A DNA stretch of 64,000 nucleotides, from contig JAXGPL010000009.1 of assembly GCA_040766985.1 (NCBI GenBank), forward strand, positions 56,963 to 120,962, in the 5' to 3' direction. The DNA comes from Bacillota bacterium. Lineage in GTDB: Bacteria; Bacillota; Sulfobacillia; JAUYEG01. The translations under genes and the position numbers were made by a program. How positions within the stretch are numbered: position 1 is the stretch's first letter; every line of letters starts with the position of its first letter. The notes beneath the pieces were generated by a model that searched no databases, was not told the origin of the DNA, and was given only the letters and a program-made list of their open reading frames with translations. This document shows positions 19,542-52,088 of the stretch, piece by piece.

Positions 19542-19559
19542 CCATTGCCGGCAAGCCAT

Positions 19560-35942: not shown

Positions 35943-35943
35943 C

Positions 35944-37776
35944 CTAACGCAGCCCCTCCACGTACGCGACTAGTTGCTCGGGAGTGAGGTCGTTGCCGAC
36001 CGTGTTGCGTCTAAGGCACAGCAGGCTCTGCGGCAGGCCCTTGACCACGGTGTTCACGCCCTCTTCGACTGTGAGCGAGATCTTGATGCCCATCTCCCAG
36101 AGCAAGACCTCCGCCAGTTCCGTGTGGATCCCGAACGGATAGGCGTAGGCCGTGACCGTGGTGCCGAGCGTGCCTTCGATCTCCTCCCGGGAGGCTCCGA
36201 AGTCGGAACGGAACGCCGCGACGTAGTCGGCCTCGCTCTCATCCTGCATCCTGAGCACACCCCGCCGGAAGTGGTCGGCGTCAAGCCGGGGCGAGTGGTG
36301 CATGTCATAACTATGGCTCTGGATGTCCAACACCCCGGCCTCGATCCACGGTCTGGCCTCTTCCAGCGAGAAGTGCGGGATTATTTCCTCGTCTTTGTCC
36401 TTGTACGTGTCCTTGCCGATCGACACCCCGATGACACTAACCGTGGCACACATGCCATACTCGGCCAGGATCGGTGCCGCAACCTCAAGGTTGCTCCGGT
36501 AGCCGTCGTCAAAGGTAATTACAAGCGGCTTCGTCGGCAGAGGCGTCCCGCGCTCCACGAAGTCAACCAATGCGGATAGCGGGACGGTTTTGAAGCCCGC
36601 TTCGCTAAGGGCCTTGATTTGGGCACGGAAGGTCTGCTCCGTGACCGTGCTCTCGCCCGGCTGATCGCTGATATGGTGATAGAGCAGGATCGGCACCTGC
36701 CGGTCGTGCCCAAGGTCTTCTGGAGGAGCGCTCAAGTACCCTTTTAGCCTGGCTTCGACGTTATCTGCAGTGACCTTGACGCCGAAGTCCCCTGGTACGT
36801 AGACGCCCTCGTCGCCGAACATCCTTGCCAAAGCCATAGCCCCGACGGCGTTGCGGTGATGGTACATGTCGTAGAAGTATCGCGGTTCGTAGGCCACGCT
36901 GTGATAGCCTGTGAAGTCCCAGAAGTCAGTTACCGCAGCCAGCCTGCGGAAAAAGGCCATGAGTTCGCCCTTGGGAAACAGGTCTAGCTCCTGAGCAGAC
37001 ATCGGTGAGATGATCAGGGTAAAAGTCGCTCCGGCCGCCTCGCTGCACTGCTTGATAACCGCGATGGCCTCCAGGCAATCGTCGATATGTGGGAGCGATT
37101 CGTACGGACCGAATCCCCGCCCGAACTCCGGGTACTTGGCCATGTACTCCTCAAGGGAACCGACCGGCTCCGTGTCGCGGAGGGATTTGTCGTAGACGCC
37201 GGTCTCCGGCTGGAAGACCCTGTTGGCGTCAACCAGATAGGATCTGGAGAGCAGGCCTCTCAGTTTCTCTACGCTGTAGCTGGGATTCGATAGAAGATAC
37301 CGTGTATAGAAACGGACGAGGTTGGAGCCGTCGACTTTAGCGTGCAGGTTTCCCTTGACGGGATCGTCCACGTAGCCAAACCTGGCCAACTCCTCGAGCC
37401 CCATGTTGAGCACAATGTGGTCGGCCTTGTATCGTGACAGGACATACCTGGCCGTCATGCAGGCGTCGTAGAGGTCGCCGCCATACATCGTCAGATTGTA
37501 GAAGCTGGCCCCGCCGAAATAGCGGTTGAGCAACTCCGTTGGGTAGGAACTGGTCTTGGAGCAGCCGATGATGTAGGAATCGTAGTTGTCATGGTACCGG
37601 TCAAGGTAGCCGATCTTGGCCGTCCGGGGGTTCTGGGTCATGTCGTACGCCCACCATTCGACGAGCTTGTCCCCAAAGACTCCAAACGGGTCGACCAACG
37701 CGTTGAAGCCGGCGAATATCCCTGCGAAAAGAATGGAGCTGGCCAGAAAGACCAACAGCCACTTGTTGAGCGGCAT
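35944..37776 (-). CDS. fusion protein: N-terminal TM anchor + DltD/DHHW-like (SGNH-fold) domain + C-terminal NodB-type polysaccharide deacetylase (CE4)
   Basis: C-terminal half carries CE4 motifs (ILLYHHI, VITFDDGYRSN, ...HSYDMHH). The N-terminal half has a GCSKTSS serine motif and FYDMYHHRNAVG (DHHW/DltD-like). Start at the internal MPLNKWLLVFLASSILF. Confidence 0.7.
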   Translation of the reverse strand: MPLNKWLLVFLASSILFAGIFAGFNALVDPFGVFGDKLVEWWAYDMTQNPRTAKIGYLDRYHDNYDSYIIGCSKTSSYPTELLNRYFGGASFYNLTMYGGDLYDACMTARYVLSRYKADHIVLNMGLEELARFGYVDDPVKGNLHAKVDGSNLVRFYTRYLLSNPSYSVEKLRGLLSRSYLVDANRVFQPETGVYDKSLRDTEPVGSLEEYMAKYPEFGRGFGPYESLPHIDDCLEAIAVIKQCSEAAGATFTLIISPMSAQELDLFPKGELMAFFRRLAAVTDFWDFTGYHSVAYEPRYFYDMYHHRNAVGAMALARMFGDEGVYVPGDFGVKVTADNVEARLKGYLSAPPEDLGHDRQVPILLYHHISDQPGESTVTEQTFRAQIKALSEAGFKTVPLSALVDFVERGTPLPTKPLVITFDDGYRSNLEVAAPILAEYGMCATVSVIGVSIGKDTYKDKDEEIIPHFSLEEARPWIEAGVLDIQSHSYDMHHSPRLDADHFRRGVLRMQDESEADYVAAFRSDFGASREEIEGTLGTTVTAYAYPFGIHTELAEVLLWEMGIKISLTVEEGVNTVVKGLPQSLLCLRRNTVGNDLTPEQLVAYVEGLR

Positions 37777-37790
37777 TCCGGCCACCTCCC

Positions 37791-39209
37791 CTAAAACTCC
37801 ATGTAGAGGAAATTCGAGACGGTCCCCATCAAGAACAGCGAGGCGACCAGCGCAGCCCCGGCCAGCGCCGCATGGTACCACCTGGGGGCGAACCGCTCGG
37901 AGATATCCCTGGTGCTTGGCGCAAAGAAGCAAATGCCCGCGCCTGCCAACAGCAGGGCAACCGCCGGCCCGTTGGCCCGGACATAGGCCAGTCCCTGGGC
38001 GAAGAACGCGGAGGTTTCCGTGAACAGGGGCCGGATATCGAGGATTGTCTTATACACGGAAACCGCTTGCGACACCGAACTGCTGTCGAAGAGCACGCGC
38101 GTGAGGACCATCAGGGTGAAAGTCGTCGCCCAGCCCCAAAAAGCAGGCAGGCGCTTGCCCTTGAGGTTCATGATGTTCGCCACGCAGACCAGCACCCCGT
38201 TGGCGGCTCCCCAGAGGACAAAGTGCCAACCCGCACCGTGCCAGAGCCCGGAGACAAGAAAGGTGGCCATGATGGCCAGTACCATCTTGCCGATCCGGTC
38301 GCCGAAGCGAAAGATGCTCCGGAAGATGTGCTCGTAGAAGAAATTCGACACCGTGATGTTCCAACGCCGCCAGAAGTCGGCGAAATCGACCGCCTTGTAT
38401 GGGGAGTCAAAGTTGTGGGGCAGCTTGATGTTGAATAAGAGGGCCAGCCCCAGCGCCATGTCGATGTAGCCCGAGAAGTCAAAGTAATAGGCGAAGGTGT
38501 AGGCGAGGACACCGCCCCACGCCGCAAAGAAACCTCCGGCGGCCCCGCCGTAGAACGCCCGCGCATGGGCGATCAACGGGTCGGCCAGGATGATCTTTTG
38601 AGCGCAGCCAAGGGAGAACAGCACAATGCCCAGGGCGATGTTCCTGCCGTCGATGCCTGCGCGGGCGCCCGGCCGCGGCAGTTGAGGAACGACGTCGCCG
38701 TGGCGCGAGATCGGGCCGACGATCAAATGCGGGAAGAACGTGACAAAGGCGCAAAAATCGAGCAAAGGGCCCGGCTCGGTCCGGCCCCGGTAGGTGTCGA
38801 CCACGCACGTGATGATGATGAAGGTAAAGAAGGAGATCCCGAGCGGGAGCCCTGTGTTTTGATGCGGGATCGCCAGCCCGAGCAAGTGATTCAGGTTGTC
38901 GATGAAGAAGTTGGCGTACTTGAAGTACAGTAAGAACCCCAGGTTCTCAACGATGGCCCCCGCGAGAACGAGCTTGGCCGTTGCGGTGTCCTTTGGGTAT
39001 CGGCTGAACAGGCGGACCGCGCCGTAGTTGAGGAGCACGGTGAAGACCAACAGGGGCAAAAAGCGCGCGCTGCCCTGTGCGTAGAAACACAGCGATGCCG
39101 CCACCAGCCAGACCTTTGCCGCAGCCGCGCCGAGATACCTGGCGGCCAGCCAATAGCCGGCCAGAGCCAGGGGGAAGAAGACGAAGATGAATGCGTAGGA
39201 AGAAAAGAC
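37791..39209 (-). CDS. MBOAT family membrane-bound O-acyltransferase (DltB/AlgI-like)
   Basis: ~470 aa, >10 TM, conserved His region (LWHGAGWHFVLWG) and typical MBOAT core. GTG start at 39209 with a GGAGGA RBS. Confidence 0.85.
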   Translation of the reverse strand, partial: VFSSYAFIFVFFPLALAGYWLAARYLGAAAAKVWLVAASLCFYAQGSARFLPLLVFTVLLNYGAVRLFSRYPKDTATAKLVLAGAIVENLGFLLYFKYANFFIDNLNHLLGLAIPHQNTGLPLGISFFTFIIITCVVDTYRGRTEPGPLLDFCAFVTFFPHLIVGPISRHGDVVPQLPRPGARAGIDGRNIALGIVLFSLGCAQKIILADPLIAHARAFYGGAAGGFFAAWGGVLAYTFAYYFDFSGYIDMALGLALLFNIKLPHNFDSPYKAVDFADFWRRWNITVSNFFYEHIFRSIFRFGDRIGKMVLAIMATFLVSGLWHGAGWHFVLWGAANGVLVCVANIMNLKGKRLPAFWGWATTFTLMVLTRVLFDSSSVSQAVSVYKTILDIRPLFTETSAFFAQGLAYVRANGPAVALLLAGAGICFFAPSTRDISERFAPRWYHAALAGAALVASLFLMGTVSNFLYMEF

Positions 39210-39309
39210 CACTGCATCCTCCGGCGACCGACGTCGCAATACAGTATAGCACTAGTAGACATAAGTCGCCAAGCTGGCCTTTTGCGCCCATGCGGCACTG
39301 CGGACCGCG

Positions 39310-40030
39310 GTGGGACGGGCTGCGCGCAAAGGTGTGCCGGCCGACGTGACCGTCAAGGCCGTGCTCTTAGCTATGGAGCTGGCCGCGCCGGGCCCTTCGT
39401 TTACTGATGCGGTCTTTGAGGCGGCTCTGGCGTGCGTTGGCGAGGGCGAGGCCACCCGGATCCTATCGTACGGCCGTCGCCGCGACCGGGAAAGGTCACT
39501 GGCCGGCGCCCTCCTGTCGCGGCGGCGCTGGCCGACGCGCTGACGCAGGAGGACCAGGGCAATGGCTGTACCCCGGCCCCGTGGGAATTCTGCATCCTCC
39601 GCGGGCCGACGGGCCGCGTCCCTCGCCTGGGGGCCGGCAAGGCACCCCGCGCCGATTTCAACCTGTCCCATGCCGGAGCGTGGGTCGGTGTCTCGCGGCG
39701 CGGAGAATCCCGGGTCGGGGTGGATGTCGAGGGGTCCGCCCTGTCGAGCCTGCACTGCTTCGGCGTTGCCTTATGCCGGATGAGTATGAGCGGGTGATCG
39801 CCCTTCCGCCCCGAGAGCGGTTGGCGGAGTTCTTTCAGGCCTGGACGGCCAAGGAAGCCCGGCTCAAGGGTACCGGCGTGGGGCTTGCGACACCTCTGGA
39901 TTCGGTCCCCGCCGCTCCGCCCGACGGCTGGAGCCTGGCCCATCTCTGGCTGGATCAAAACCACCTCGTCGCGATGTGCGCTGAGCAGCCGGCTGTGCCG
40001 CCGCGGCGGGCCGGACGTCGTGACGATGGC
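39310..40030 (+). CDS. 4'-phosphopantetheinyl transferase (Sfp/EntD-type), split over three frames
   Basis: RILSYGRRRDRERSLAGALLSRR (frame A), DFNLSHAGAWVGVSRRGESRVGVDVE (frame B), FFQAWTAKEARLKGTGVGL (frame C). Divergent from the MBOAT/ACP operon. 3' end approximate. Confidence 0.6.
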
Positions 40031-40067
40031 TATGCTCCTTCAACGCCTGCCGGCGTTGCGTGGCGCC

Positions 40068-41300
40068 CTAGACCCTGGTCCGCGGTTTGCGTTTGCGCAA
40101 GTAGAGCCGCAGGTGGAGAAGGGCGCCGATTCCTGCGGCCGGCACGAGAAGCACCGCGGCCGCGGTGAGCGGTGCGCGCTTCAACAGCGGCGGCCTCGGG
40201 TCGGGCGAATCCCCCGGTTCCACCGGCGGCAATTCGGGCTCTTCCGCCGGGGGGGTCCCAGCGGGCGGGTCAGCAGGCGGCGCGGCGCTTCCGACCTTGA
40301 TGTAGTCCGGTTTGACCTCGCTATTGCTTCCCGCCTCGTTGGCTACGGTGAGGCGTACTGTGTAGGTGCCTGGCCCGTCATAGGTGTGGGACGGATTCCG
40401 GGCGGCACTGTCGGGAGTGCCGTCGCCATCGAAGTCCCACTGCCATGAGGTCGGCCCGCTGGACGACCGGTCCTCGAACTTCACGGTCAGAGGCGCGCTG
40501 CCCGACGTGACATCGGCGGCGAATCCCGCCACCGGCGCCTCGGGGGCGTCAGGCGCGGGCTCCGCGCTGCAGATAACCAACTCCGCAACGCACTGGATCG
40601 AGAGCCCGGTCGTTGTCGGATACTTCTCCCCGCCGTTGTGGAAGTAGTACCAGTACTCCTCCTCAGCCGCCTCGTGCCAATCCCAGTTGCCAAAAGATGT
40701 GCCTCTGCCACGGGTTGGCCGAGTGTCCGCAAACCAGATCAGGCATCCCCTCGCCAAACCCGCTGTCCGGCATCTGCCCGTCCTTGCACCAGCAGATCAC
40801 CATCGGGCCCTCACGTTCCGAGTACTCATAGACGTTCTTGTAAGCAAAGTCCTGCTGAGGCCGTCACTCGCCTTGACCCTCAGTTTGTCGCCCTCTGCCA
40901 TGCCCCCAACCAGTTCAGAGGTCCCTGACATTGGTGCCCTTGAGGGCTCCCATGTCCTTGACATTGGTGTCTTCGGCAGGATCCAGCGCAGCGCCTGCTC
41001 GATTGTTTCGTCCGGGCCGTTGGCAAACACCGGGCCCTGGTGGTAGTAGTGCGTAACTCCATCTCCGAGGACCGGCATGTTGCGCGGGTCCATCAGCCAG
41101 CGGTAGTCCACTGTCTTTTCCGCCAGCACCGTCTCCCCGTCGGATGCCAGCTTCTTGATAGTCAAGGCTTTGAGTTGGGAGGCGGCAGCTTGGCGGTCGG
41201 TGGAAAGATGACACCCAGCACCATCGACAAGACGAGGGGCCCCGCAGCAGGAACGCCACAGGTTCCCGCCGGCTGATCCGGCGCTGACGCAGAGCCTCTC
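40068..41300 (-). CDS. surface protein X1: SO-family-like conserved domain + PKD domain + C-terminal TM anchor; multiple frame breaks
   Basis: PKD motifs (PLTVKFEDRSS...WQWDFDGDG...NPSHTY...GTYTVRLTV) and a C-terminal TM with a basic tail. The upstream region matches the X2/SLH-protein domain (LAEKTVDYRWLMDPRNMPVLGDGVTHYYHQGPVF..., WDWHEAAEEEYWYYFHNG) but spans at least three frames. Confidence 0.5.
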
Positions 41301-41326
41301 CCTCCTTCCTTCTCCTGGGTTGCCTA

Positions 41327-42378
41327 GCTTCTGAACAACGACACCGATGCCGGCGGGATAGTCAGGTAAACCTGCTGTCCCACCTCAAGGGCCAGGCGCT
41401 CGCAGGTGTGGCGGGTGATCAGGCAGGTGAAGGCCGGCAGCAGTCGACCACGACATCGACGATCGAGCCCTTGTTGACGATGCGCGTGATCGAGCCCGGG
41501 GGAAGACGTTGGCGGCCGCCGCATCTTCGGGCCCGGACCTGGAAACGGATATTCTCCGGCCGGATCGCGGCAAGACAATCGCCGGCGATACCGGTTTCGG
41601 TGATCAGCCTTATCCCCCCGGTCGTAAAGACCGCCGTCCCACTGTCGTCCACCTCCGCAACTCCGGGGAAAACATTGACGGACATGGTGAACCGGGCCAC
41701 AAACTCGGAACCGGGCCGGCGGAATACCTCGTCGGGAGTGCCCACTTGCTTTATCGACCCGGCGCAGATGACTGCGATACGGGTGCCCATCGCCACTGCT
41801 TCCTCGAAGTCATGGGTGACATGGATGATTGTGGTGCCCAGCTCGCCGTGGAGTTGCATGATTTCCTCTCTGACCTTCTCGCGAGCCTGCGGGTCAAGCG
41901 CACCGAGAGGCTCGTCGAGGAGCAGAACCGATGGGTTGGTCACCAAGGCGCGGGCCAGGGCCACCTTCTGCTTCTCGCCCCCGCTCAGGTGCTGGGGCCT
42001 TCTCGCGAGAAGCCCGCCAATGCCGAACAAGTGCGCGACGCGGTCGAGCTCGCTACTGATTTCCGCTGCCGGCCTGCGCCGGACCTTCAGTCCGAAAGCG
42101 ATGTTCTCCGCTACCGTGAGGTGGGGGAACAACGCGCAATCCTGATAGACCATGCCGATGTTGCGCCTCTCCGACTCCAGCGAAGTCACGTCCCGGCCAT
42201 CGATCCAGATCCGACCCGAGGTCGCCTTGCGCAGTCCCGAGATGGTTTCCAGGAGCAAGGTCTTGCCGGAAGCGTACGGTCCGACCAGGACGAAGTACTC
42301 ACGGTCAAGGATGTCCAGGGTGATGTCCTGCAAAGAAAAACCGGGCATCTGCAGGCAGAGACGCTCAAGCTTGATCAT
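41327..42378 (-). CDS. molybdate/tungstate ABC transporter ATP-binding protein (ModC/WtpC-like with TOBE domain); frame break near ~41490
   Basis: Walker A GPYASGKT, LSGGEKQKVALARAL, LLLDEPLGALD. The C-terminal TOBE segment (RHTCERLALEVGQQVYLTIPPASVSLF) is in a second frame (ORF 41324..41578). Confidence 0.75.
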
Positions 42379-43193
42379 GGTCGCGTCCTCCGCAACAGGG
42401 CCTGCACCCCGATGAAGACGACCGCGCTGATGGTAATCATGATCGCCGCGACTGAGACCGCCGGCGCCAATCCGTAGGTTTCAAACCGCTCGTAGATCAG
42501 GACGGGGGCGATGGTCGGGTGGTAGGTCAGGATGATGACCGCTCCGAACTCGCTCATCGCCCGGGCCCACATCATCAGGCTGCCGGCGAGGATGCTCCGC
42601 CAGGCCAGTGGGAACGTCACCCGGGTGAAGGCTTGCCAGGGCGAGGCCCCCAAGGTGCGCGCGACCTGCTCAAGCCTCACATCAACCTTCCTGAAGCTCT
42701 GCTTGGCGGAACTGATCAGGATCGGAACGCTGACGAAGAGCATGGCGATGACGATTCCGGCCACGGTATCCACGAACTCGACCCCGATCGCCTTGAATCC
42801 CTTTCCCACGAGAAAGTTGCTGCCGAAGATGAACAGTAATGCGATGCCCGCGGCGGAATGGGGGACCACGACGGGCAGGTCGAGCAGCCCCTCGATGATG
42901 CTCTTGCCGGGAAACTGATAGCGGGCGAAGATGTAGGCCAGCGGCACTCCCAGGACGAACCCGATCCCCACGGCGATCAACGCGGCGTAGATGGTCAGCC
43001 AGATCGAACGGATCGTGTCGGAGTCGGCCAGGGTCTGCCACAAGGCTTGCTTGTCGGAGAGAAAGACCAGCTTAAGCAATGGTAGGAGGATGAACAGCAC
43101 GAGAACGACGCCGAGGACGGCAAAGGCCCCGGCAAAGGTGGCGCGGCGGACACCTGTTGCCCGTATCTTTTCCTTTCGTTCGTTTGGCTGCAT
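42375..43193 (-). CDS. molybdate/tungstate ABC transporter permease (ModB/WtpB-like)
   Basis: Polytopic protein with the MetI-type EAA-like region (MMWARAMSEFGAVIILTYHP). Overlaps the ATPase by 4 nt. Confidence 0.75.
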   Translation of the reverse strand: MQPNERKEKIRATGVRRATFAGAFAVLGVVLVLFILLPLLKLVFLSDKQALWQTLADSDTIRSIWLTIYAALIAVGIGFVLGVPLAYIFARYQFPGKSIIEGLLDLPVVVPHSAAGIALLFIFGSNFLVGKGFKAIGVEFVDTVAGIVIAMLFVSVPILISSAKQSFRKVDVRLEQVARTLGASPWQAFTRVTFPLAWRSILAGSLMMWARAMSEFGAVIILTYHPTIAPVLIYERFETYGLAPAVSVAAIMITISAVVFIGVQALLRRTRP

Positions 43194-43201
43194 TCGCTTT
43201 C

Positions 43202-44284
43202 CTAACGGACGAGCTGCCGAAGGGTCTCGGGCAGGCTGGCAGGGTTGTCGCACACCGGCGCCGGGATCAGTGGCTGCCATGATTCCTCGAATATGCGCCG
43301 CCCGTCCGGGCCGAGCAGGAACTCGATCAACCTGGACGCTTCCTCGGGATGAGGGGAGTTCTTCGGAATCGTCAGCGCGTACATGATCTGAGTGCCCTCA
43401 AAGCTTGGCATCACCGAGGCGAACCTTCTGAAATCGAGGTTCACCCGGACGCGCTGGTACTCCTCTTCAAAATCGGGGCTGCCGAGGTCGATGGCCGGCG
43501 GCAGGGCAACGAATCCCAGGCCGCGCTGTTTGGCTACGCTCTCGTACTCAAAGGAGTAGTCGAGGTCGCCTGACTCCAGCAAGGCCATCAACTGGATACT
43601 ATAGCTTCGCAGCTTGATACGGGATTGGGTCGACTTGACGACTTCCGGAACGGATATCGTCCGGATGCCGCCATCTTCCGTGATGGCCATCGGCGGATCG
43701 AATGCGGCGCCGATCGTCTTCTCGAATAAGGCATCATCCCGGTAGTGATCCTCGGCCATCTTCACCGCCATCAAGGTCCGGTACCCCATGGCGTCGATCC
43801 GGGGATCGGCCAGGCCGATTGTCACGTCGGGCCGCGAGAGAATCGCCGGCCAGTGCTCGGCGTCCATTTCGGCCGCATGGGCGCTCGTGGGCTGGCACGC
43901 AATGCCGAGCCGGTTAGTGGAAAACTTGATCGACCAGTCGGCGTACGGCGTGCCGCCGCCCGGCAGCGAGGCCGAGTACATCAACAGCGGTATCAACTGC
44001 GCGTCGGCCACGGCCACGACGTCAGCGATCTTCCCCAATTCGGTGACGCTGCGGATGACCTGTACGCTGCCGTGCCCCTCCAACTGCACGTCGATGCCGG
44101 GATTGCGGTTCTCAAACTCCCGTTCAAGGGTCTGGAAGGGCACAAGGAGGCTGCCGGCGATAATAGCCTTGACTTGCACCCGGTTGTCCTTTTCGCGTCC
44201 CCCGCAAGACATACAGCCGGCCACAAGCGCTGCGACCAAGACCAAGGCGACGGCAGTCGGCAGGAGGCGAAGCTGCCGGCGCAT
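43202..44284 (-). CDS. molybdate/tungstate-binding periplasmic protein (WtpA/ModA-like) lipoprotein
   Basis: Signal peptide with lipobox (LVAGCMSCGG) and a PBP-type-2 fold pattern. First gene of the transporter operon. Confidence 0.65.
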   Translation of the reverse strand: MRRQLRLLPTAVALVLVAALVAGCMSCGGREKDNRVQVKAIIAGSLLVPFQTLEREFENRNPGIDVQLEGHGSVQVIRSVTELGKIADVVAVADAQLIPLLMYSASLPGGGTPYADWSIKFSTNRLGIACQPTSAHAAEMDAEHWPAILSRPDVTIGLADPRIDAMGYRTLMAVKMAEDHYRDDALFEKTIGAAFDPPMAITEDGGIRTISVPEVVKSTQSRIKLRSYSIQLMALLESGDLDYSFEYESVAKQRGLGFVALPPAIDLGSPDFEEEYQRVRVNLDFRRFASVMPSFEGTQIMYALTIPKNSPHPEEASRLIEFLLGPDGRRIFEESWQPLIPAPVCDNPASLPETLRQLVR

Positions 44285-44310
44285 ATGTGTTGCTCCATCT
44301 CTGACCTGGC

Positions 44311-44919
44311 TCACGGGGCTCGGAGGACCTCGATTTTGGTGACCCATTTGACCCAGTAGCTGCCCTCGGTCAGGAGCCCCCCTGCGGGGCTGACCACTGC
44401 CAGCCGCAACGGTCTGCCCCCTTCATCGTCCAGCGGCTTGCCATCGAGGCGGTACATCAGGATGGTCTGTAGCTCCGTGTCGGGCACCTCCCTGAGGTCG
44501 GGGGTATAAGCGATGAAATCGCCCATCACCTGCTCGTAGCTCAGCACCGTCGAGTAGCCGTCCCTGGCTGAAACCATGACCGCATCGCCCTGACCCACGC
44601 CTCCGACCTGATTGCATAGCTCTTCGACGGTTACCCCACGCACAGGGTAGGGCCCGTAGACGATTCCGACGGACGAGAAGAAGCCCCCGTCACCCGCGTA
44701 CGCCGGCAGGGAGGTTACATCCTTGTACGTCAGCGTCTTGCTGGAGCCGTCTTTCCCGACCAGAGTCAGCCGCCAGGCTCTCGTATCGGCGTCCACCAGC
44801 AGATTCCATGGCTGGAGATAGGCAATCGCCGAGGCCAAGATGAGAAGCGCGCCGGCGATCAGGACGAGCCCGGACCTGTCCCTCCTCATGCCGGTCGTCT
44901 CCGTGCGTAGCAGTACCAC
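44311..44919 (-). CDS. membrane-anchored single-domain SO-family (Oxidored_molyb)-like protein
   Basis: N-terminal TM then WRLTLVGKDGSSKTLTYKDVTSLPAY...GVTVEELCNQVG...ARDGYSTVLSYEQV...GKPLDDEGGRPLRLAVVSP...YWVKWVTKIEVL. This pattern matches the C-terminal half of the sulfite-oxidase/YedY Mo-domain fold. Confidence 0.55.
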   Translation of the reverse strand: MVLLRTETTGMRRDRSGLVLIAGALLILASAIAYLQPWNLLVDADTRAWRLTLVGKDGSSKTLTYKDVTSLPAYAGDGGFFSSVGIVYGPYPVRGVTVEELCNQVGGVGQGDAVMVSARDGYSTVLSYEQVMGDFIAYTPDLREVPDTELQTILMYRLDGKPLDDEGGRPLRLAVVSPAGGLLTEGSYWVKWVTKIEVLRAP

Positions 44920-45749
44920 CCGACCAGCGCGAGCCCTGCCAGGCCTAATGCTGGCGGCAGCCAGGGCGGTGCGCCGCCGCGTTTGGCCGGGACATCAGGC
45001 GCGCCTGTCACAGCAGTCAGGTCGGCGTTTTCTGGAACGCCTCCGCTGTAAATCCTGACTTCGCTGATCCACTTGCCCGACAGGCCGTTGGTGCTGGGGT
45101 ATTGCCCCTCGAAGAAGTGCTGGTACTCCTGCTGGGGCAGGGCAATCTTCATGTCGATGTTGCCAAAAACGCGTTTTCCGGCCTGGTTTGGCTGTTCCAC
45201 CATGAAAACGATCTGGAGGGCGCTGGCGTATGCGTTGTTCGCCGGGTATCCAGTGCCGAACCGCTCCCCTTCGCCAGCCTCTTCGCCGCAGAACCAGCAG
45301 AGCGCGATGACCCCCTGTCCGGGCGGGGGCTCATACACGTTGCCGTAGGCAAACGTTGTGTGCCAGTTGTCGACGGCGATCAGGACGACCTCATCTCCTT
45401 CTGCCATGCCGCCCACCAGGTCACAGAGATCCTTCACCGCGGTACCCATCACCGCGCCCTTGTCCTTGAGGTTGGTGGTTTCGTCGGGATCCCATGAATC
45501 ACCCTCGAAGACGGGGCCCTGGTGGTAGTAGTGCGTCTCGCCGTCTCCGTAGACCCTGAGGTTGTCCTCCATCCACCGGTAATCGACTGTCTTTTCCGCC
45601 AGCAAGGTTGTGCCGTCGGCGGCGTACTTCGCGGCACGCACCGCGGTGGTTGCCCCCGCGGCAACCACGGGGGCTGGAGATAGGACCTGGGACAGGAGCA
45701 GCAACGCGATCAGAGCCACGTGGCGCAGCCGCCATACGTTCTTTGTCAT
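44886..45749 (-). CDS. secreted protein X2 (paralog of the X domain in the SLH protein and X1)
   Basis: Signal peptide (MTKNVWRLRHVALIALLLLSQVLSPAPVVAAGA), AGGAG RBS. Conserved block LAEKTVDYRWMEDNL.VYGDGETHYYHQGPVF...DLCDLVGGMAEGDEV...KWISEVRIY shared with 45850..49320 and 40068..41300. Confidence 0.5.
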   Translation of the reverse strand: MTKNVWRLRHVALIALLLLSQVLSPAPVVAAGATTAVRAAKYAADGTTLLAEKTVDYRWMEDNLRVYGDGETHYYHQGPVFEGDSWDPDETTNLKDKGAVMGTAVKDLCDLVGGMAEGDEVVLIAVDNWHTTFAYGNVYEPPPGQGVIALCWFCGEEAGEGERFGTGYPANNAYASALQIVFMVEQPNQAGKRVFGNIDMKIALPQQEYQHFFEGQYPSTNGLSGKWISEVRIYSGGVPENADLTAVTGAPDVPAKRGGAPPWLPPALGLAGLALVGWYCYARRRPA

Positions 45750-45849
45750 GATCGGACTCCTATGGAAGATGGTGGATAGGGGCGCGCAAGGCCTATCCCC
45801 CTGGTTATACGCCAAGCCCTGATATCGCTCTCTCAGGGCAGCGACGGTC

Positions 45850-48800
45850 TCAGATATCCAGAGCGTTGACCAGAGCCGTGAGAGCTTCCGCCCTGGTGGC
45901 GTTGCCGTGAGGCCGCACGGTGTTGTCGGGATATCCCTTCAGGATCCCCGCCTCTGCAGCGGTAGCCACTGCGTCAACCGCCCAATTCGAGATGTCGTCT
46001 CCGTCCGCGAAGCCGGTGGCGCCGGTGACCACGTCAAGATCCAATGCCCGGACAATCATCGTCGCCATCTGCTCGCGGGTGATCCGGTCGTCGGGGCCAA
46101 AGCTGTTGCCCCCGTATCCCTCGACAATCCCCAGGGCCGCAGCCACGGAAATGCTGTCCTTGGCCCAGTGATCGGCGGTGTCGGCAAAGACCGCGCCCGT
46201 CTCAGCAGTCAGCTTGAGGGCCTTTACCAGGATGGTAGCAAACTCCGCCCTGGTAATGGTTGCGTCGGGCCGGAAACTGCCGTCGGGATAGCCGGTTACC
46301 ACCCGTGAGGACACCAGTTCTTCGATATTCGCCTGAGCCCAATGCCCCGCGATGTCATTGAGGGCGGGAAGGGCGATCAGCTCGATGCTCGCGATCTGCG
46401 AGACCGACATTGAGCCGCTCACAGACGGGCCCACCAGCCGGAGCGGCCAGTTGCTGTCCGACTCGGGAATCGCGGCCCCGTTGAGCGTGTTGGCCACTAT
46501 GTAGTCGCTGTTGCGGATGATGTCCCTGCTGCTGATCGTGACCGAATACCCGTCCGCAGCCGTGACCGCCACTAGGTATCCCGTCGAAGCGAGTTGTTGG
46601 TTGAAGGCATTGTCGGTGTGCTTATCCGCGTCATCAACAAATCCCGCGAGGAACCAAAGGGGCATGCCTTCCCAGACGCGACCCTTCGAGTCCGTGAACG
46701 ACGCCTTGTGGTTCGCTCCGAACTGGCATGCGAGCGCCTGTTCAAAGTAGGTCTTGTTGATGTCTTCCTTCAGGCCGCCGACGGATTGGCCATCAAGCTT
46801 CAGAGTCCAATCGTTCACGGGGACCGCGAAGACCTCAATCTTGGTTATGTACTTTGCGGACAGGCCTGCGCACGACGGGTACTGGACGTTGTCGGCGTAG
46901 TAATAGTGCCAGTACTTCTCGGGCAAGGTCTCGTGCATATCCCACTGCCCATACACGTGGTCGCCGCCAGGCGCGAAGAACAAACGCATGCCGTCCTTGT
47001 ACCCCGGCACGTATTCGCCGTCGCCCCACCAGGCCAGAATGGCGTCGCCCTGGCGAGCCTGGACCGCCGGATCCGGGTAGATGGAGGAGTACGGCAGCGT
47101 TGTTTCATAGCCGTCATCGGCGACGAACACGATCTCCGTGCCTGACCCCATACCGCCGACAAGGTCGCAGAGGTCGCTGACCCGGGTGCCCTTGACGGCG
47201 TTCTCGATCTTGAAACCGCCGGGATAGGTCTCCGCCTGATCCCAGACGTCAGCCGGATTGCTGGTAATTCCCTCGTAGCGGTACTTCGTCACCCCGTCGC
47301 CGACTACGGGAAGGTTGGCTTCCATCCATAGATAGTCGACGGTCTTTTCCTCGACGACGGTGGTCTGGTCCGCGCCGTACTTGACGATATGGAGCTCCGG
47401 TATCGGAAGAGCCGTCTCAAACTCGATGAGTTCGATCTCGGCGATATTCCCGACGCTGGTTCCGCTGAACGTGCCGTCGGGCCTGATGACTCCCTGACCG
47501 ACTAGCCGTAGCGGCCCGGACTCCGTCAGCGCCTGCCCATTGAGCTTGTCAGCCACAATGTAGCTACTGCTGTTGGCGATGTCCGCGCTCGCGAACTCCT
47601 TGGCGTATCCATCCCCGGCCTTTACTACTACGGTGTAACCGGCCTGAGCTTGAGTGAAGCTAAACGAGTGCGGCTCGCGGTCATCCACCCAGCCGGCCAG
47701 GAACCAGAGGGGCATGCCGGACCAGACATTGCCGTCATTGTCCGTCCACTCCAAGAGGTGCCCCGAATTCGGGCAGGCGAGGCCGGCCTCGAACTCAGCC
47801 TTGGCGAAGACATCAGTGATCTTGCCGGTCAGGCTAAGGTTCCAGCTCCCGGCCCCGGCAGGGGGCGTAAGCAGTTCGGGGATCGCAATCTTGGCGATCT
47901 GACCAACCGCGGAGCCGCCGAGGCTGCCATCGTCCTTGGTGACGCCGGAACCGACCAGGCGGAGCGGCCACGCATCCGTGAGCGGCGCTCCGTTGACCTT
48001 GTTGGCGACGATGTAGTCGTCGCTTCCGGCGATGTCGGCACTGGTGAACGTCTTGGTAAACCCATCTGCAGCTGAAACCTCGACGCTATAGCCGTCGGCC
48101 GCCAACTGCTGGTTGAAGGTCCACCCGCTGCCCGGCTCGATGTCGTCGACTACGCTCACCAGAACCCAGAGCGGCACGCCCGACCAGACGTTACCGTCCT
48201 TGTCGGTCCACTCGCGGTAGAAACCCGAAGTCGAGGAGGCCAGATCGCTCTCAAACTCCTCTTGGGTGAGCGTGTCTCCTATCTCGCCGGACATTTCCAG
48301 GGTCCAGCCCTCGGTGGGCACGGGGAGGTCGGAAAGCTCGATCTTGACGATGTTGCCGACCTGTTGTCCGCCGAGCACCTCGGGGCCCTTAAGGTGAAGC
48401 GGCCAGCAATCCTTGCCGCTCGCGGTCTGCTCCGGCAGGGGATCTCCGTTGAAGGTATTGGCGACGATGTACCCGGCGTTGCGCGCGATCGCCGAGCTGT
48501 CGAACGTGGCTGACCACCCGTCGCCCGCGATGACATTGACCTTGTAGTCCTGGGCGGCCAGGCTGTCGCTGAAGTTGATGTGATCGCTGCCGGCATCAGG
48601 GTCATCGTCGACCATGCCGACCAGCAGCCAGAGTGGAACCCCGCCCCAGACGTTGCCTTCGGGGTCCGTCCAGTTGACCTGGTGCCCTGAGGCCGAACAC
48701 GCGAGGCCTTGCTCGAAGTACGCCCTGGTAACGCTGGACGCCTTGGCCCCAGTGAGCTGAAGCGTCCAGTCTCCGGTGGGCGCCGGTGGCGCAGTCCCGG

Positions 48801-49320
48801 TGGATGCGACGGTCTTGACGGCCGCTGTTGCTGCGGCCTTGACGGCGCTGAGGTCTGTCTCATCGTCGATGCCGGCGGCGTAGTAAAACTCAACCCGGTC
48901 GCCGGCATGCAGCTCGATGAGGTTGAGGGCGCCGGCGGCGTTGTTGTAGCCGTCCTTGAAGACGTCGTTGACATAGGCGAACCACTTGCTGCCGCCCTTG
49001 ACGTAGCCATAGGTGCCAATATTGTCCAGCAGGAGTGCGCCGGATGCCCCGATGTTCTTGTCTGTCACATCAAAGGAGAACCCTCCGGCGACACCGGCCG
49101 CACGAAGGGCCCCAAGCGGCGTCGCTTCGCTGACCTCGTACGAGGCTCCGGAGTTGTAGGCAGTCACGCTGAAGTTGCCGGTGGGGGACAGCACAACTGT
49201 GCCTTCGAAAAGCACATCGATTGTCATTGCACTCGCCTGCGCCGGCGACAACAAGACCGCTATCGCCAACAGCAGGGTAAACAGCTTTCTGCCGAATCCC
49301 TTTCGCGTAAGGTAGTTCAA
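45850..49320 (-). CDS. large S-layer-homology (SLH) surface protein with 4-5 tandem SO-family-like repeats, an X domain and 3 C-terminal SLH domains
   Basis: Sec signal peptide. Four ~150-aa repeats (WTLQLTG...WGGVPLWLL...DGWSATF...GDPL...WPLHLKGPEV...VGNIVKIEL and variants). Central X domain (TVDYLWMEANLPVVGDGVTKYRY...KYITKIEVF). Three SLH domains (IAGHWAQANIEELVSSRVVTGYPDGSFRPDATITRAEFATIL...). Confidence 0.8.
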   Translation of the reverse strand: MNYLTRKGFGRKLFTLLLAIAVLLSPAQASAMTIDVLFEGTVVLSPTGNFSVTAYNSGASYEVSEATPLGALRAAGVAGGFSFDVTDKNIGASGALLLDNIGTYGYVKGGSKWFAYVNDVFKDGYNNAAGALNLIELHAGDRVEFYYAAGIDDETDLSAVKAAATAAVKTVASTGTAPPAPTGDWTLQLTGAKASSVTRAYFEQGLACSASGHQVNWTDPEGNVWGGVPLWLLVGMVDDDPDAGSDHINFSDSLAAQDYKVNVIAGDGWSATFDSSAIARNAGYIVANTFNGDPLPEQTASGKDCWPLHLKGPEVLGGQQVGNIVKIELSDLPVPTEGWTLEMSGEIGDTLTQEEFESDLASSTSGFYREWTDKDGNVWSGVPLWVLVSVVDDIEPGSGWTFNQQLAADGYSVEVSAADGFTKTFTSADIAGSDDYIVANKVNGAPLTDAWPLRLVGSGVTKDDGSLGGSAVGQIAKIAIPELLTPPAGAGSWNLSLTGKITDVFAKAEFEAGLACPNSGHLLEWTDNDGNVWSGMPLWFLAGWVDDREPHSFSFTQAQAGYTVVVKAGDGYAKEFASADIANSSSYIVADKLNGQALTESGPLRLVGQGVIRPDGTFSGTSVGNIAEIELIEFETALPIPELHIVKYGADQTTVVEEKTVDYLWMEANLPVVGDGVTKYRYEGITSNPADVWDQAETYPGGFKIENAVKGTRVSDLCDLVGGMGSGTEIVFVADDGYETTLPYSSIYPDPAVQARQGDAILAWWGDGEYVPGYKDGMRLFFAPGGDHVYGQWDMHETLPEKYWHYYYADNVQYPSCAGLSAKYITKIEVFAVPVNDWTLKLDGQSVGGLKEDINKTYFEQALACQFGANHKASFTDSKGRVWEGMPLWFLAGFVDDADKHTDNAFNQQLASTGYLVAVTAADGYSVTISSRDIIRNSDYIVANTLNGAAIPESDSNWPLRLVGPSVSGSMSVSQIASIELIALPALNDIAGHWAQANIEELVSSRVVTGYPDGSFRPDATITRAEFATILVKALKLTAETGAVFADTADHWAKDSISVAAALGIVEGYGGNSFGPDDRITREQMATMIVRALDLDVVTGATGFADGDDISNWAVDAVATAAEAGILKGYPDNTVRPHGNATRAEALTALVNALDI

Positions 49321-49641
49321 CTACTCTTTCCTCCTTCAAACCTGTACTTCCAGTGGCTTGATCTCAGCCGCCGGCCGAGAGTCTCCGGGTCCCGACAACA
49401 ACGGGGCCCGCCGACGTCCCAAACCACGCCTCAAAGCCAAATTCGTTGGCCCAGCGTGGCATCTTCGTGAGAGAATCAATATGCTCCTGCAAGCATATCC
49501 GCGGGCGGACCCTGTGCGGCATAGAGACCGGTTGGGGTGGGGGGGGTAGGCCTTCAGTCTGGCCTTGGCGCGGCGAGGGTTCCGAGAGCGCGGGGCGGCT
49601 CGCGCTTTCCCGGGCCGCCCCGCGGATGCCTTTGAGTAACC

Positions 49642-50139
49642 TCAGTGGTTCTGGGCGTCGGCTTTCGTGAGGTGGACTGTACCCCGCGGATGCTCAGGGG
49701 GTGCGTAGATCACGTAGACCCTGAGTGGTTTCGAGCCTATGTTGATCACGTTGTGCCACTTGCCGGCCGGTATGAAGATTGCGTAGTCATCGGAGGCCCC
49801 GGCCTGATAGGTCAGCGCGTCCGGGCTGTCGCCCATCAGAACAACCGCCTGGCCCTCCTCGACTCGTATGAACTGATCGCCGTCCGGGTGCACTTCGAGA
49901 CCAATGTCGTCCCCGACGTCGATGCTCATCACGGTAAGCTGCAGGTGTTCTCCCGTCCACAAAGCCACACGGAAGGCTGGGTTGTCAGTTGTTGCCTCCT
50001 CGATGTTGATGACAAATGGGTGCGGCCCGTAGTCCGTCAGCCCTGGGGGGACCAGCGGGCAGGGTTTGTGGGAATACGGCGGACACTTGGCTGCCGGGCC
50101 GGCTGAGTAATACGGATTCCCGGGGTAAGCGTTGTACAT
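49642..50139 (-). CDS. cupin-domain protein with Tyr/Pro-rich N-terminus (spore-coat-like?)
   Basis: MYNAYPGNPYYSAGPAAKCPPYSHKPCPLVPPG low-complexity N-terminus followed by a cupin barrel (HLQLTVMSIDVGDDIGLEVHPDGDQFIRVEEGQAVV). Confidence 0.6.
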   Translation of the reverse strand: MYNAYPGNPYYSAGPAAKCPPYSHKPCPLVPPGLTDYGPHPFVINIEEATTDNPAFRVALWTGEHLQLTVMSIDVGDDIGLEVHPDGDQFIRVEEGQAVVLMGDSPDALTYQAGASDDYAIFIPAGKWHNVINIGSKPLRVYVIYAPPEHPRGTVHLTKADAQNH

Positions 50140-50209
50140 CTATCTCCATCCTTTCGCGGGTTGTTGCTGCATTCTACGTTCAGTCCCGCGAAGGGTGAAT
50201 AGCTGGGGG

Positions 50210-51286
50210 TTAGGTGCTAGCCATAGCGGCATCCTCGGCTGCCTGGATGGCTTGGATCACATCCGCTGAGAACCGGGAATTGTCTCCTCGCGCGGCTATC
50301 TCGCTATAGGCCTGCAGGAACCGCGCGGGGGAGCGGAGTAGCTCCACCAGCCCTTCCTCTCCTCGTTCCGCGGCTATCCGCCTGCACATGTCCACGCCGA
50401 GGATGTAGATCGCCGGCAGGTGCCGGCCTTCGTATGCTCCGAGAAATCGTGCGGGAAGGGTCTTCATCCCCTCGGAAACCTCAAGACGTCCCCCGATGAG
50501 GTCGCAAAGGCCGTTCTCCAGGTCCCGGTAGTGCATCGGGAGGTCCTGGACTGTCTTCTCCCATCTCTTGGGGTCCGCCATGGGGGCGTCATAGGGGGTG
50601 AAGAACATCGTGGCTGAGCCCTCCCCGGATACGGCCCCGACAAGGGCCAGGGCCAATTCTCCCGGTGTGCTGGGCGTCCTGTCCGAGGAGTAAGGCTCGG
50701 GGAGGACGGAGGCGAGCCCGATGTGATGGAGTTCATGTTTGAGCACGTTCTCGACAGGCATGCCGGTACACACCGGCCGTCCGCCTGCCAGCTTGAGAGG
50801 CCAGAAGCTGATGACCACGTCTCGCTTGAAGGCGTAGGCGTCAGTATGGGTTTCAGCGAGGAAATAGGCCGTGCTGTCAATGCTTGCGCCCGTGGGCAGG
50901 CGATTCAGAACTTCTTGCTCCAGGGTACCAGGTTGGAGTCTCCCGACGGCCTCGTAGACCTCACAGTGCCGGGGCAGGTCTTGCCGGGCTTGCTCCAGGG
51001 CCGTAACGAAACGACTGAAGAAGCGATGCCCTTCCCAGGCCCGCCCTTCGGAGTAATCATCAAGGCAGCGCTCGAGTTCCTCCGTCGTCAGCCCCTCAGC
51101 GTCCGAATCCTTGCCGCCGAACTGGCGGATGATCGCCCGCGTCCGCTCAAGGAGAAAGACGTAACCTGGATCGAACGCGATCTCCCGGATTGCCTCCCGC
51201 GAGAGTCTCCGCCCCGACCCAAGCGTGTGTAGGTAGTCAAGGACAAGCCCGGTACCACGGTGGTCGATTCTCAGCAAGGCCCACAT
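50210..51286 (-). CDS. hypothetical protein with HExxH motif (putative zinc-dependent hydrolase)
   Basis: 358 aa, LKHELHHIGLASV. No other recognisable domain. Confidence 0.45.
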   Translation of the reverse strand: MWALLRIDHRGTGLVLDYLHTLGSGRRLSREAIREIAFDPGYVFLLERTRAIIRQFGGKDSDAEGLTTEELERCLDDYSEGRAWEGHRFFSRFVTALEQARQDLPRHCEVYEAVGRLQPGTLEQEVLNRLPTGASIDSTAYFLAETHTDAYAFKRDVVISFWPLKLAGGRPVCTGMPVENVLKHELHHIGLASVLPEPYSSDRTPSTPGELALALVGAVSGEGSATMFFTPYDAPMADPKRWEKTVQDLPMHYRDLENGLCDLIGGRLEVSEGMKTLPARFLGAYEGRHLPAIYILGVDMCRRIAAERGEEGLVELLRSPARFLQAYSEIAARGDNSRFSADVIQAIQAAEDAAMAST

Positions 51287-51448
51287 CCTCCAAGACTAGC
51301 GTGTTGTTGGCTAACAGGAGATGTTTACTGCCCGACAGGGCAAGGTCCCTACAGTGCGGCTGGGACCGAGTGCCGCTGGGACATGGTTGCTCCGCCTCGT
51401 GGCCGCTTTGCTATAATCATCTTGAATGAAATCGTGGGGGCACCGGAT

Positions 51449-51970
51449 ATGAAAAGGTACCTCGGTCTGATTCTGGCGATTGTGCTGTTTATCACCATTC
51501 ATGAAGGCATGCATGCCTTGATGGCCCTGGCGTTCGACGAGTACCAGGCTTTCCGGGTCCGTCCATATGGCTACGAGGTCATCTTCAAGACCCCGGTCGC
51601 GGAGCGGGTCGGCGTCAAATGGGGTTACATTTCCGGCGTGAGCAACCTGGTCACGCTGCTGTTGGGCTATCTGTTCTTTGCGTGCAGGCATGCCTTCTCG
51701 CGTGCCAAGAACCGGTTCATCAGTAGCTCCGGGTACTGGCTGGCCTTCATCTTTATGTTGTTTGACCCACTTAACCTGTCGCTGATGCCGTTCGTCTTCG
51801 GTGGGGATATCAGTGGCATTGTCGCAGGCTTCGGTATCAACAGGTACGTGGTCCAGGCGATCGCCTTCCTGTTGCTGCTGGTTAACCGTGAGCTGATCAT
51901 CCACCGGCTCTTCCCGGCGTTCGGCGTTACGACCAAACACCCTCTGTTCCAGCCCGTCGTCAGGGGCTAG
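51449..51970 (+). CDS. membrane protein with HExxH in first TM (DUF3267-like putative zincin peptidase)
   Basis: MKRYLGLILAIVLFITIHEGMHALMALAF, 4 TM, 174 aa. The ORF-track start at 51260 is an extension. Confidence 0.5.
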   Translation: MKRYLGLILAIVLFITIHEGMHALMALAFDEYQAFRVRPYGYEVIFKTPVAERVGVKWGYISGVSNLVTLLLGYLFFACRHAFSRAKNRFISSSGYWLAFIFMLFDPLNLSLMPFVFGGDISGIVAGFGINRYVVQAIAFLLLLVNRELIIHRLFPAFGVTTKHPLFQPVVRG

Positions 51971-52088
51971 TTGCCGTGGCCAGCTCCATCTCCCTCTCTG
52001 GCGTGCATTCTTCTGCCATAAAGAAGGGGAGCCGCCGGCTTTGGGCGGCTCCCTTCTGCTTCGAGGCACCGTGTATACGGCTGCATGG

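Follow-up and report, generated by a model that had tools for sequence, protein, structure and literature searches.

The locus lies in a 64,000-nucleotide stretch of a Bacillota contig (the window) and comprises seven minus-strand genes, with open reading frames (ORFs) at the positions given in an earlier, sequence-only reading. They encode a wall-anchored SLH protein of 1156 amino acids (45850..49320), recognized as an ORF with Pfam matches to SLH and PF00174; X2 (44886..45749), in which a single X-type SUOX-fold domain lies between a Sec signal and a C-terminal membrane anchor; a small protein (44311..44889; 192 amino acids from MRRDR) with an N-terminal membrane anchor and a single SUOX-fold domain; the importer components WtpA (43202..44284), WtpB (42375..43193), and WtpC (41324..42378); and X1 (40068..41291). 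The stop of X2 overlaps the start of the small gene. The genes and domains of the sequence-only reading were upheld, but its description of X2 as secreted is incomplete, and its placing of the repeat Cys residues at the Mo-ligand position is not supported.

In the window, X1 is not a single ORF; frameshifts divide it into two ORFs (40797-41165 and 40068-40757), and both fragments match X2 by BLASTP. The 3′ end of wtpC, encoding the TOBE region, is also frameshifted, with indels at 41546, 41499, and 41442. Contig L001, which is 99.6% identical to the window, carries an intact X1 of 408 amino acids (L001:13246-14472) and an intact wtpC encoding 351 amino acids with TOBE domains. Comparison of the two sequences gave 28 gap openings, clustering at 39.5-41.5 kb and 45.73-45.84 kb, and the frameshifts in X1 and wtpC are probably assembly errors. 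An Rfam scan of positions 38000-52000 at E values up to 1 found no Moco riboswitch and no other RNA element, and a promoter and terminator scan gave a number of sites no higher than the expectation from shuffled sequence.

The transporter genes, previously called modCBA/wtp-like, are assigned by their profile matches to a WtpABC importer with predicted tungstate/molybdate binding. The binding lipoprotein WtpA (lipobox LVAGC) scored 275.1 bits against the NCBIfam model TIGR03730 (cut-off 242.75), which places it in the same family as WtpA from P. furiosus and ModA/WtpA from A. fulgidus and M. acetivorans, and it matched the solved archaeal ModA/WtpA structures 3k6u (E = 2e-66) and 2onk (E = 1.5e-62). 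For the permease, the best match was the WtpB model NF040839 (285.5 bits, under its cut-off of 340), accompanied by BPD_transp_1; for the ATPase it was the WtpC model NF040840 (328.8 bits, under its cut-off of 440). Tungsten (W) or molybdenum is needed by formate dehydrogenase, formylmethanofuran dehydrogenase, and aldehyde oxidoreductases, enzymes on which methanogenesis, syntrophy, and the anaerobic oxidation of methane depend. Uptake of these metals is thought to require just a three-component ABC system, and the characterized WtpABC and ModABC systems are, to our knowledge, described as three-component. A literature search found no SUOX-like proteins described in association with WtpABC.

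The SLH protein begins with a Sec signal (residues 1-31) and an N-terminal domain (32-180), continues with R-type repeats R1, R2, and R3, an X-type domain, and repeat R4, and ends with three SLH domains (approximately residues 986-1156; Pfam SLH E = 3e-40) in a region that matches the Sap and SbsB structures. The repeat limits were set with an HMM built from the repeats. R1 (residues 181-334; 48319..48780) contains the Cys...His loop GLACSASGH, R3 (489-640; 47401..47856) contains GLACPNSGH, and R4 (834-985; 46366..46821) contains ALACQFGANH; in R2 (335-488; 47857..48318), the corresponding DLASSTSGF has Ser in place of Cys. The X-type domain (641-833; 46822..47400) was identified by BLASTP as a paralogue of X2 and X1. 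The four repeats of about 150 residues, the X domain, and the Cys motifs of R1, R3, and R4 are thus all present as first described, and Pfam bears out the three SLH domains. The whole protein matches PF00174 (Oxidored_molyb) with an E value of 2.5e-16 and 60.1 bits (Pfam cut-off 24). The proposed membership of the repeats in this family held for the whole protein and for R4 scanned alone (25.1 bits against the cut-off of 24), but not for the other repeats taken singly; R2 was sub-threshold (18.4 bits), and R1 and R3 gave no match to PF00174. In both the SLH and small proteins, the PF00174 match covers only HMM positions ~70-162 of 169, corresponding to the C-terminal half. The R-type profile aligned with the small-protein profile at an hhalign probability of 94%, and this result and the PF00174 matches support the initial identification of the repeats and the small protein as sulfite-oxidase-fold domains. 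The N-terminal domain of the SLH protein matched nothing in Pfam at E values up to 10 and nothing in the PDB by sequence; by eye, we take it to resemble a DUF4430-like β-grasp.

The small protein was confirmed as a membrane-anchored, single-domain protein beside the importer genes, and it matched PF00174 with an E value of 1.5e-10 and 41.3 bits (cut-off 24). In an ungapped W...G register with YedY, Cys102 falls on Ser or Thr in all 73 species compared, and the D-G-Y and C-terminal K-W motifs are kept in 72-73 of the 73. The automatic name "molybdopterin-dependent oxidoreductase" is probably misleading for this protein. Among small structures, the closest match is PruR from Agrobacterium, Vibrio, and Klebsiella (PDB 7kos, 7kp2, and 7rkb; PMC11194511), which is exported by Sec, has a SUOX fold without the Cys, and binds pterins. 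Tat export of the small protein was considered and ruled out: the RR of its MRRDR start is not kept among orthologues, and the segment is an uncleaved anchor.

X-type domains occur in X2 and X1 and once in the SLH protein. The copy in the SLH protein is 39% identical to X2 (BLASTP E = 5e-37) and 37% identical to the small protein over 90 residues (BLASTP), and the X domain is itself a divergent SUOX fold. X2 was compared with the small family by hhalign using trimmed alignments, since untrimmed alignments caught a fused small domain in one sequence. Neither X2 nor X1 reaches the PF00174 cut-off. X-type is a newly defined SUOX-fold domain family with 529 cluster representatives, and no Pfam or NCBIfam model detects it. 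X2 is 46-50% identical between Bacillota and methanogens and contains the invariant polar motifs THYYHQGP, NLKDKGA, VFGN.DM, and PSTNGLSGKW, with HYYHQ at the hairpin tip in the mapped Mo-ligand position. Such invariance is easier to reconcile with an active site or a highly specific pocket than with a passive relay, and it counts against the capture-and-hand-over model described below. X2 had been described as a secreted protein; the signal peptide is present, but the C-terminal membrane anchor means that the protein is not simply secreted. X1 consists of a signal peptide, an X-type domain, a PKD domain, a Pro-rich stalk, and a C-terminal membrane anchor; the PKD domain (PKD_4, E = 1.3e-18, in its 229-aa ORF) and the anchor were both found as anticipated.

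The Cys is conserved in 119 of 152 R-type domains and its paired His in 125 of 152. Forced global hhalign to single SorA and YedY sequences pairs the R-type Cys with their Mo-ligating Cys, but only by deleting 11 residues, which would eliminate the β2-α1 element. Alignment of the R-type and small-protein profiles instead puts the Cys ~8 residues upstream of the ligand position, leaving the equivalence drawn by the sequence-only reading unsupported; the Cys probably lies ~8-10 residues upstream of the Mo-ligand position. An apparent match to SorT "Cys127," three residues before W-S-G-V-P-L, was discarded as a probable coincidence of SEQRES versus published numbering. The Cys...His pair is not accounted for by the capture-and-hand-over model described below.

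These data bear on the possibility that the domains are genuine surface molybdo- or tungsto-enzymes that carry Moco, with the transporter merely supplying metal. Such a role would fit the PF00174 matches and database names, the forced pairing of the R-type Cys, and the strong residue conservation in X2, but it is quite unlikely. Moco insertion takes place in the cytoplasm, and proteins already folded around Moco depend on Tat for export; the accessory proteins, in contrast, carry Sec-type signals or membrane anchors and show no conserved twin-arginine motif, as was originally noted. Neither the small type nor the X type has a Cys where the Mo ligand maps, and none of the clusters examined encodes a heme, cytochrome, or YedZ-like redox partner for electron transfer. 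Furthermore, the domains are ~150 amino acids long, like PruR, and are devoid of the longer cleft elements of the enzymes (PMC11194511). Because the small and X types have no mapped Cys, no redox partner is encoded, and PruR is the closest match, the proteins are better regarded as putative noncatalytic binding modules, one of the two options offered at the outset.

X2 is encoded in 301 species-level genomes, and linkage was counted in the 65 species-level loci whose sequence extends 3.2 kb or more past X2. All 65 have the small gene directly after X2, and 63 continue with wtpA on the same strand. Locus L039 has wtpCBA on the opposite strand, and wtpB and wtpC lie apart in several methanogen loci. 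Many proteins of ~490 amino acids are X2-small fusions. Comparison of L001 with locus L003 revealed wholly different flanks, with the seven genes kept together. The co-localization with the importer, which the sequence-only reading allowed might be chance, is conserved in these loci and reinforced by the fusions; it is not coincidental. The idea that these are generic surface or S-layer proteins sitting beside a transporter by accident draws on the frequency of SLH and PKD domains in envelope proteins, but the order kept in 63 of 65 loci over two domains of life, the fusions, and the unrelated flanks make it extremely improbable, and these neighborhood statistics effectively refute it. Since 63 of the 65 loci place X2 and the small gene directly before wtpA, an unrecognized step before the binding protein is suggested, and the recurrence of the pairing with WtpABC across dozens of anaerobic bacteria and archaea points to an undescribed extracellular step in uptake.

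The genes are confined to strict anaerobes that live in methanogenic or sulfidic settings and belong to the Bacillota, Chloroflexota, and archaea, including syntrophic Bacillota, Dehalococcoidia, Methanomicrobiales, Methanothrix, and ANME and relatives. This restricted distribution would fit a role of the proteins as processing enzymes that turn thiotungstate, thiomolybdate, or organic complexes into the oxyanion for WtpA. The invariant His, Tyr, Asp, and Lys clusters of X2, enzyme-like and located at the SUOX metal-ligand hairpin, agree with such a role, and the R-type Cys...His could bind thiophilic metal species. However, the support is purely circumstantial, no homology to a known hydrolase of thiometalates was found, and the habitat bias is equally well explained by tungsten use itself; we consider a processing role unlikely.

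Our preferred explanation, which we rate as somewhat better than an even chance, is that all seven genes act as a single functional unit: a surface capture-and-hand-over module for tungsten or molybdenum species that feeds WtpA. The accessory proteins would consist solely of noncatalytic SUOX-fold variants exported unfolded via Sec. In the wall or S-layer, the SLH protein would display its five modules; X1 would be held on its PKD domain and Pro-rich stalk, and X2 and the small protein would reside at the membrane next to the lipoprotein WtpA. The modules would bind W or Mo species outside the cell and pass them inward to WtpA, in a relay that may be likened to the wall-anchored NEAT-domain proteins handing heme to the Isd ABC importer. 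We infer binding rather than catalysis, W or Mo species as the ligand, and hand-over to WtpA. Candidate ligands are the free oxyanion, pterin-bound W or Mo from cofactor debris, or another complexed form. Archaeal WtpA has picomolar affinity for tungstate, so the need for a free-oxyanion antenna is not obvious.

Additional genes accompany the cluster in some loci. A purple-acid-phosphatase-like surface gene (for example, L007:7294-9048) is present in 24 of the 34 fully flanked loci; its product has a signal peptide and an anchor, and its metallophosphoesterase motifs are largely intact. One protein of 1277 amino acids in locus L075 joins the phosphatase-like enzyme to an X-type domain. AFOR genes adjoin the cluster in locus L006, two moeA genes adjoin it in L075, and the P0132 contig carries MoeA and a second oxyanion ABC system; these W- and Mo-related neighbors favor the capture-and-hand-over model. 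No purple-acid-phosphatase-like gene was found in the window or in L003. These absences, together with the separation of wtpB and wtpC in several methanogen loci, count against the capture-and-hand-over model.

A more specific version of that model is extracellular salvage. Neighboring cells would release molybdopterin-type cofactors (Moco, W-co) or products of their decay, which the modules would capture; the metallophosphoesterase would then strip phosphate or nucleotide, and WtpABC would import the freed oxyanion. The signal peptide, anchor, and frequency of the phosphatase-like enzyme and its fusion in L075 fit this proposal, as do hosts that are strict anaerobes rich in W and Mo enzymes, but the enzyme is missing from the window and L003, free Moco is labile, and we know of no precedent for salvage of W or Mo cofactors in prokaryotes. 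The SUOX fold is known to bind only Moco, as in the enzymes, and pterins, as in PruR; the pocket of PruR is described as too short for Moco (PMC11194511). PruR holds its pterin with Asn102, Tyr104, and Trp160 and has Pro-Trp at the Cys position (PMC11194511). The three pterin-contacting positions seem to be retained, judged by motif order only, as D-G-Y and K-W for the small protein and as D-x-W and K-W for X2. We think salvage improbable. Stated more broadly, it is conceivable, though improbable, that SUOX-fold receptor arrays of strict anaerobes, often with a surface phosphoesterase, capture pterin-bound or complexed W or Mo and release the metal to WtpA; the source may be, for example, cofactors shed by neighboring cells. 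If so, W and Mo would have their first described receptor relay, and the Moco-binding fold would have a second nonenzymatic role besides that in PruR.

In Proteobacteria, the gene for PruR shares an operon with that for the c-di-GMP enzyme DcpA (GGDEF-EAL) (PMC11194511). By analogy, the small protein, with or without X2, might bind an extracellular pterin and regulate WtpABC or another membrane partner, but a sensing role is very improbable: no DcpA-type or other signaling partner is encoded in any cluster examined, multimodule wall proteins and a phosphatase are hard to fit to a sensor, and the PW motif of PruR was not found in the small protein in an alignment of 73 species. Returning to capture and hand-over, the cluster offers a testable handle on the competition of anaerobes for trace W and Mo, and it extends beyond PruR alone the idea that a Moco-binding fold can be reused outside the cell as a ligand receptor.

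PruR and the small protein are both small, Sec-exported, truncated SUOX folds without the Mo-ligating Cys. They differ in what occupies the Cys position, which is Trp in PruR, Ser/Thr-Ser/Thr in the small protein, and HYYHQ in X2, and in their partners and hosts; PruR is paired with DcpA in Proteobacteria, whereas the partner here is WtpA, in Bacillota, Chloroflexota, and archaea. Also unlike PruR, these systems have three paralogous domain types, module arrays, wall and membrane anchors, and often a phosphoesterase. The domains share the SUOX Moco-domain fold with sulfite oxidase, SorA, SorT, SoxC, and YedY/MsrP, but they are about half the size of these Moco enzymes, with no Tat signal and no dimerization or redox domain, and a Cys at the mapped ligand position is missing from two of the three domain types. 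The analogy with the Isd heme system of Gram-positive bacteria is one of architecture, with paralogous modules at different depths of the envelope and an ABC importer. The fold, ligand, and anchoring chemistry are different, and transfer is demonstrated between Isd components, whereas transfer between the modules described here is hypothesized.

The run of minus-strand genes described by the sequence-only reading (SLH protein, X2, small protein, importer and X1) was confirmed by ORF calling, Pfam and NCBIfam matches. All genes are co-directional: the 1156-aa SLH protein (45850–49320), X2 (44886–45749 from its likely start; signal peptide, X-type domain and C-terminal membrane anchor), the 192-aa membrane-anchored small protein (44311–44889), wtpA (43202–44284), wtpB (42375–43193), wtpC (about 41324–42378) and X1 (about 40068–41291), in whose last ORF Pfam found a PKD domain. 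WtpA exceeded the curated NCBIfam cut-off and aligned at E 2e-66 with archaeal ModA/WtpA proteins of known structure, and the best NCBIfam matches of its neighbors were WtpB and WtpC. Pfam detected PF00174 (Oxidored_molyb) in the small protein (E 1.5e-10) and, together with three SLH domains, in the 1156-aa protein (E 2.5e-16). The latter is ordered as signal peptide, N-terminal domain, repeats R1–R3, X domain, R4 and SLH anchor. Its residues 32–180 (48781–49227) had no Pfam match at E up to 10 and none among PDB sequences; a degenerate R-type repeat (27.9 bits) occupies this place in L004, another contig with a homologous cluster.

The window is 99.6% identical to the public contig L001 (GCA_964430585.1), with 28 gap openings clustered at 39.5–41.5 kb (39520–41550) and 45.73–45.84 kb (45730–45840) and only substitutions outside these stretches. 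Frameshifts affect the 3' end of wtpC, X1 and a plus-strand phosphopantetheinyl-transferase gene (39407–40168), all of which are intact in L001 (wtpC, 351 aa with TOBE domains; X1, 408 aa). Because many indels fall within one 2-kb stretch and only substitutions occur elsewhere, they probably reflect a local assembly or polishing fault rather than pseudogenization, and the L001 copy was used to analyze X1. A set resembling a surface-polymer acylation system adjoins the cluster at 34300–40170 (annotated from L001) and comprises a 4'-phosphopantetheinyl transferase, an MBOAT protein (37791–39239), a polysaccharide-deacetylase-domain protein (35944–37932), a PP-binding carrier protein and a HAD hydrolase; it is not kept beside the cluster in contig L003. 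The region 5' of the SLH gene (49642–56450) encodes a Cupin_2 protein (49642–50139), a DUF5700 protein (50210–51286) and a 1453-aa surface protein containing numerous MBG_2-type repeats of ~90 aa (52089–56450), none of them conserved with the cluster elsewhere.

The strongest result is the linkage of X2, the small gene and wtpA. When one genome per species was scanned, 301 proved to encode X2 relatives, among them genomes of Bacillota (Syntrophomonadaceae, Peptococcaceae and Moorellaceae), Chloroflexota (Dehalococcoidia and Anaerolineales) and archaea (Methanomicrobiales, Methanosarcinales including Methanothrix, ANME-1, GoM-Arc1 and Bathyarchaeia). In every look-up (L003, L004/L005, L006, L007, L008 and one JGI contig), the neighborhood recurred with unrelated flanks. 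Among the best 80 loci of the scan, 65 extended 3.2 kb or more beyond X2 on the downstream side; the small gene directly follows X2 in 65/65, and wtpA then follows on the same strand in 63, with one more locus carrying wtpCBA on the opposite strand. The importer link, earlier considered suggestive and perhaps coincidental, was thus upheld in orthologous loci. Many proteins of about 490 aa are X2–small fusions. Across the 34 loci that were flanked by 10 kb in either direction, R-type repeats were present in 29, and wtpB, wtpC and a purple-acid-phosphatase-like gene in 24 each. The accessory proteins are tied genetically to WtpA more tightly than are wtpB and wtpC.

In loci from Methanoculleus and relatives (L054, L051–L053, L064, L069, L072, L079, L082 and L087), X2, the small gene and wtpA adjoin one another, and neither wtpB nor wtpC was found within 10 kb; the permease and ATPase must come from another part of the genome or be shared. 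In L006 (10623–13372), wtpABC 3' of the small gene is broken into short ORFs of 64–131 aa, so either the transporter has decayed or the assembly is poor. Two aldehyde:ferredoxin oxidoreductase genes lie beyond these fragments. The Methanoregula locus L075 has two moeA genes divergent from the cluster (4289–7353), one of which carries a fused PBP_like oxyanion-binding domain; beside another cluster lie MoeA and a further oxyanion ABC system. The purple-acid-phosphatase-like protein carries a signal peptide and is anchored either in the membrane or by SLH domains, and most of its metallophosphoesterase motifs are intact; in L075, this domain is joined to four PKD and one X-type domain in a single 1277-aa protein (15938–19771).

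Fold comparison gave scores of 17.4 for chicken sulfite oxidase, 17.3 for SorA, 16.5 for SoxC, 15.7 for PruR (133/138 residues), 12.9 for YedY and 5.4 for the best unrelated fold, PruR being the closest small structure. R-type repeats aligned with the small family at 94% probability. The R-type and X-type domains join the fold of the small protein, and the accessory proteins are therefore all made up of three paralogous sulfite oxidase (SUOX)-fold domain types: R, small and X. PF00174 sees only G-x-P-L-R-L and V-K-W, the C-terminal motifs that the types have in common (HMM positions about 70–162). The family assignment proposed from sequence stood for the small protein and the repeats; when the repeats were scanned one by one with Pfam, R4 alone exceeded the threshold. 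Searched for among 1.84 billion representatives, the X-type family proved compact, with 529 members at E up to 1e-3 and 306 at E up to 1e-30; giant multi-module proteins belong to it.

Evidence points away from the accessory proteins being Moco enzymes. Each has a Sec-type signal or membrane anchor, and the RR of MRRDR in the small protein is not conserved among orthologues, in agreement with the earlier remark that twin-arginine signals are lacking. None of the clusters examined encodes a haem, cytochrome or YedZ-type partner. The W-x-L-x-x-x-G strand and the G-x-P-L motif are equally far apart in Escherichia coli YedY and the small protein; in this register, YedY Cys102 maps to Ser/Thr, adjoined by a second Ser/Thr, in the small proteins of 73/73 species, and the X2 hairpin tip at the mapped ligand position is an invariant T-H-Y-Y-H-Q-G. 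Judged by sequence, the accessory proteins are without hallmarks of catalysis. PruR is a non-enzymatic protein of the SUOX fold; it is secreted through Sec, lacks the Cys and binds a pterin between Tyr and Trp (PMC11194511; PMC13259868). Compared by motifs rather than superposition, the small protein and X2 resemble PruR in the order of an invariant Asp-x-aromatic and a C-terminal Lys-Trp, which may be counterparts of its pterin contacts.

The cysteine noted earlier in the repeats is real and conserved, occurring in 119/152 R-type domains from 52 species-level loci, and His lies 1–5 residues after this position in 125/152. Its proposed placement at the Mo-ligand position is doubtful. In a profile–profile alignment with the small family, it falls at the end of helix α1, ~8 residues before the ligand position, and the hairpin tip of the repeats is a conserved [W/Y]-T-D-x-x-G. 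Forced global alignment to single SorA and YedY sequences pairs it with their cysteines but requires deleting 11 residues, which would cost the domain a core strand and helix; the profile–profile alignment is considered more reliable. Cys-less repeats (L004, L006, L007 and L008) have a shorter loop, and A-L-W-R consistently replaces P-L-W after the W-x-G motif, a covariation suggesting that the Cys…His loop packs against this segment.

The accessory proteins are most likely receptors feeding WtpA, given their graded extracytoplasmic placement, a fold whose known ligands are Moco and pterins only (PMC11194511), the lack of catalytic hallmarks and the WtpA linkage. From outside inward come the SLH protein in the wall, stalked X1, and membrane-anchored X2 and small protein beside the lipoprotein WtpA; as putative receptors they would capture a W/Mo species outside the cytoplasm and deliver it to WtpA. 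A free oxyanion is the simplest choice of ligand, but it would leave both the X2 pocket, elaborate and highly conserved as it is, and the phosphoesterase without a ready explanation. Pterin-bound W/Mo, as cofactor debris, would fit both the ancestry of the fold and the phosphoesterase, although to our knowledge its capture is without precedent. Thiometalates or organic complexes agree with the habitats and with nothing else.

Databases name the small protein "molybdopterin-dependent oxidoreductase" or "YedYZ catalytic subunit" and X2 "hypothetical"; both names miss the genomic context. The full texts searched did not describe SUOX-like proteins as partners of WtpABC; they form a limited collection, in which absence is not proof. 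The cluster matters because of the organisms that carry it and because direct tests are possible. The accessory proteins are probably a variant of PruR-type non-enzymatic SUOX-fold binders and the cluster would be a variant of ABC importers with surface receptors, and the architecture of the proposed W/Mo receptors parallels that of the relay by which NEAT-domain proteins of Gram-positive bacteria pass on haem.
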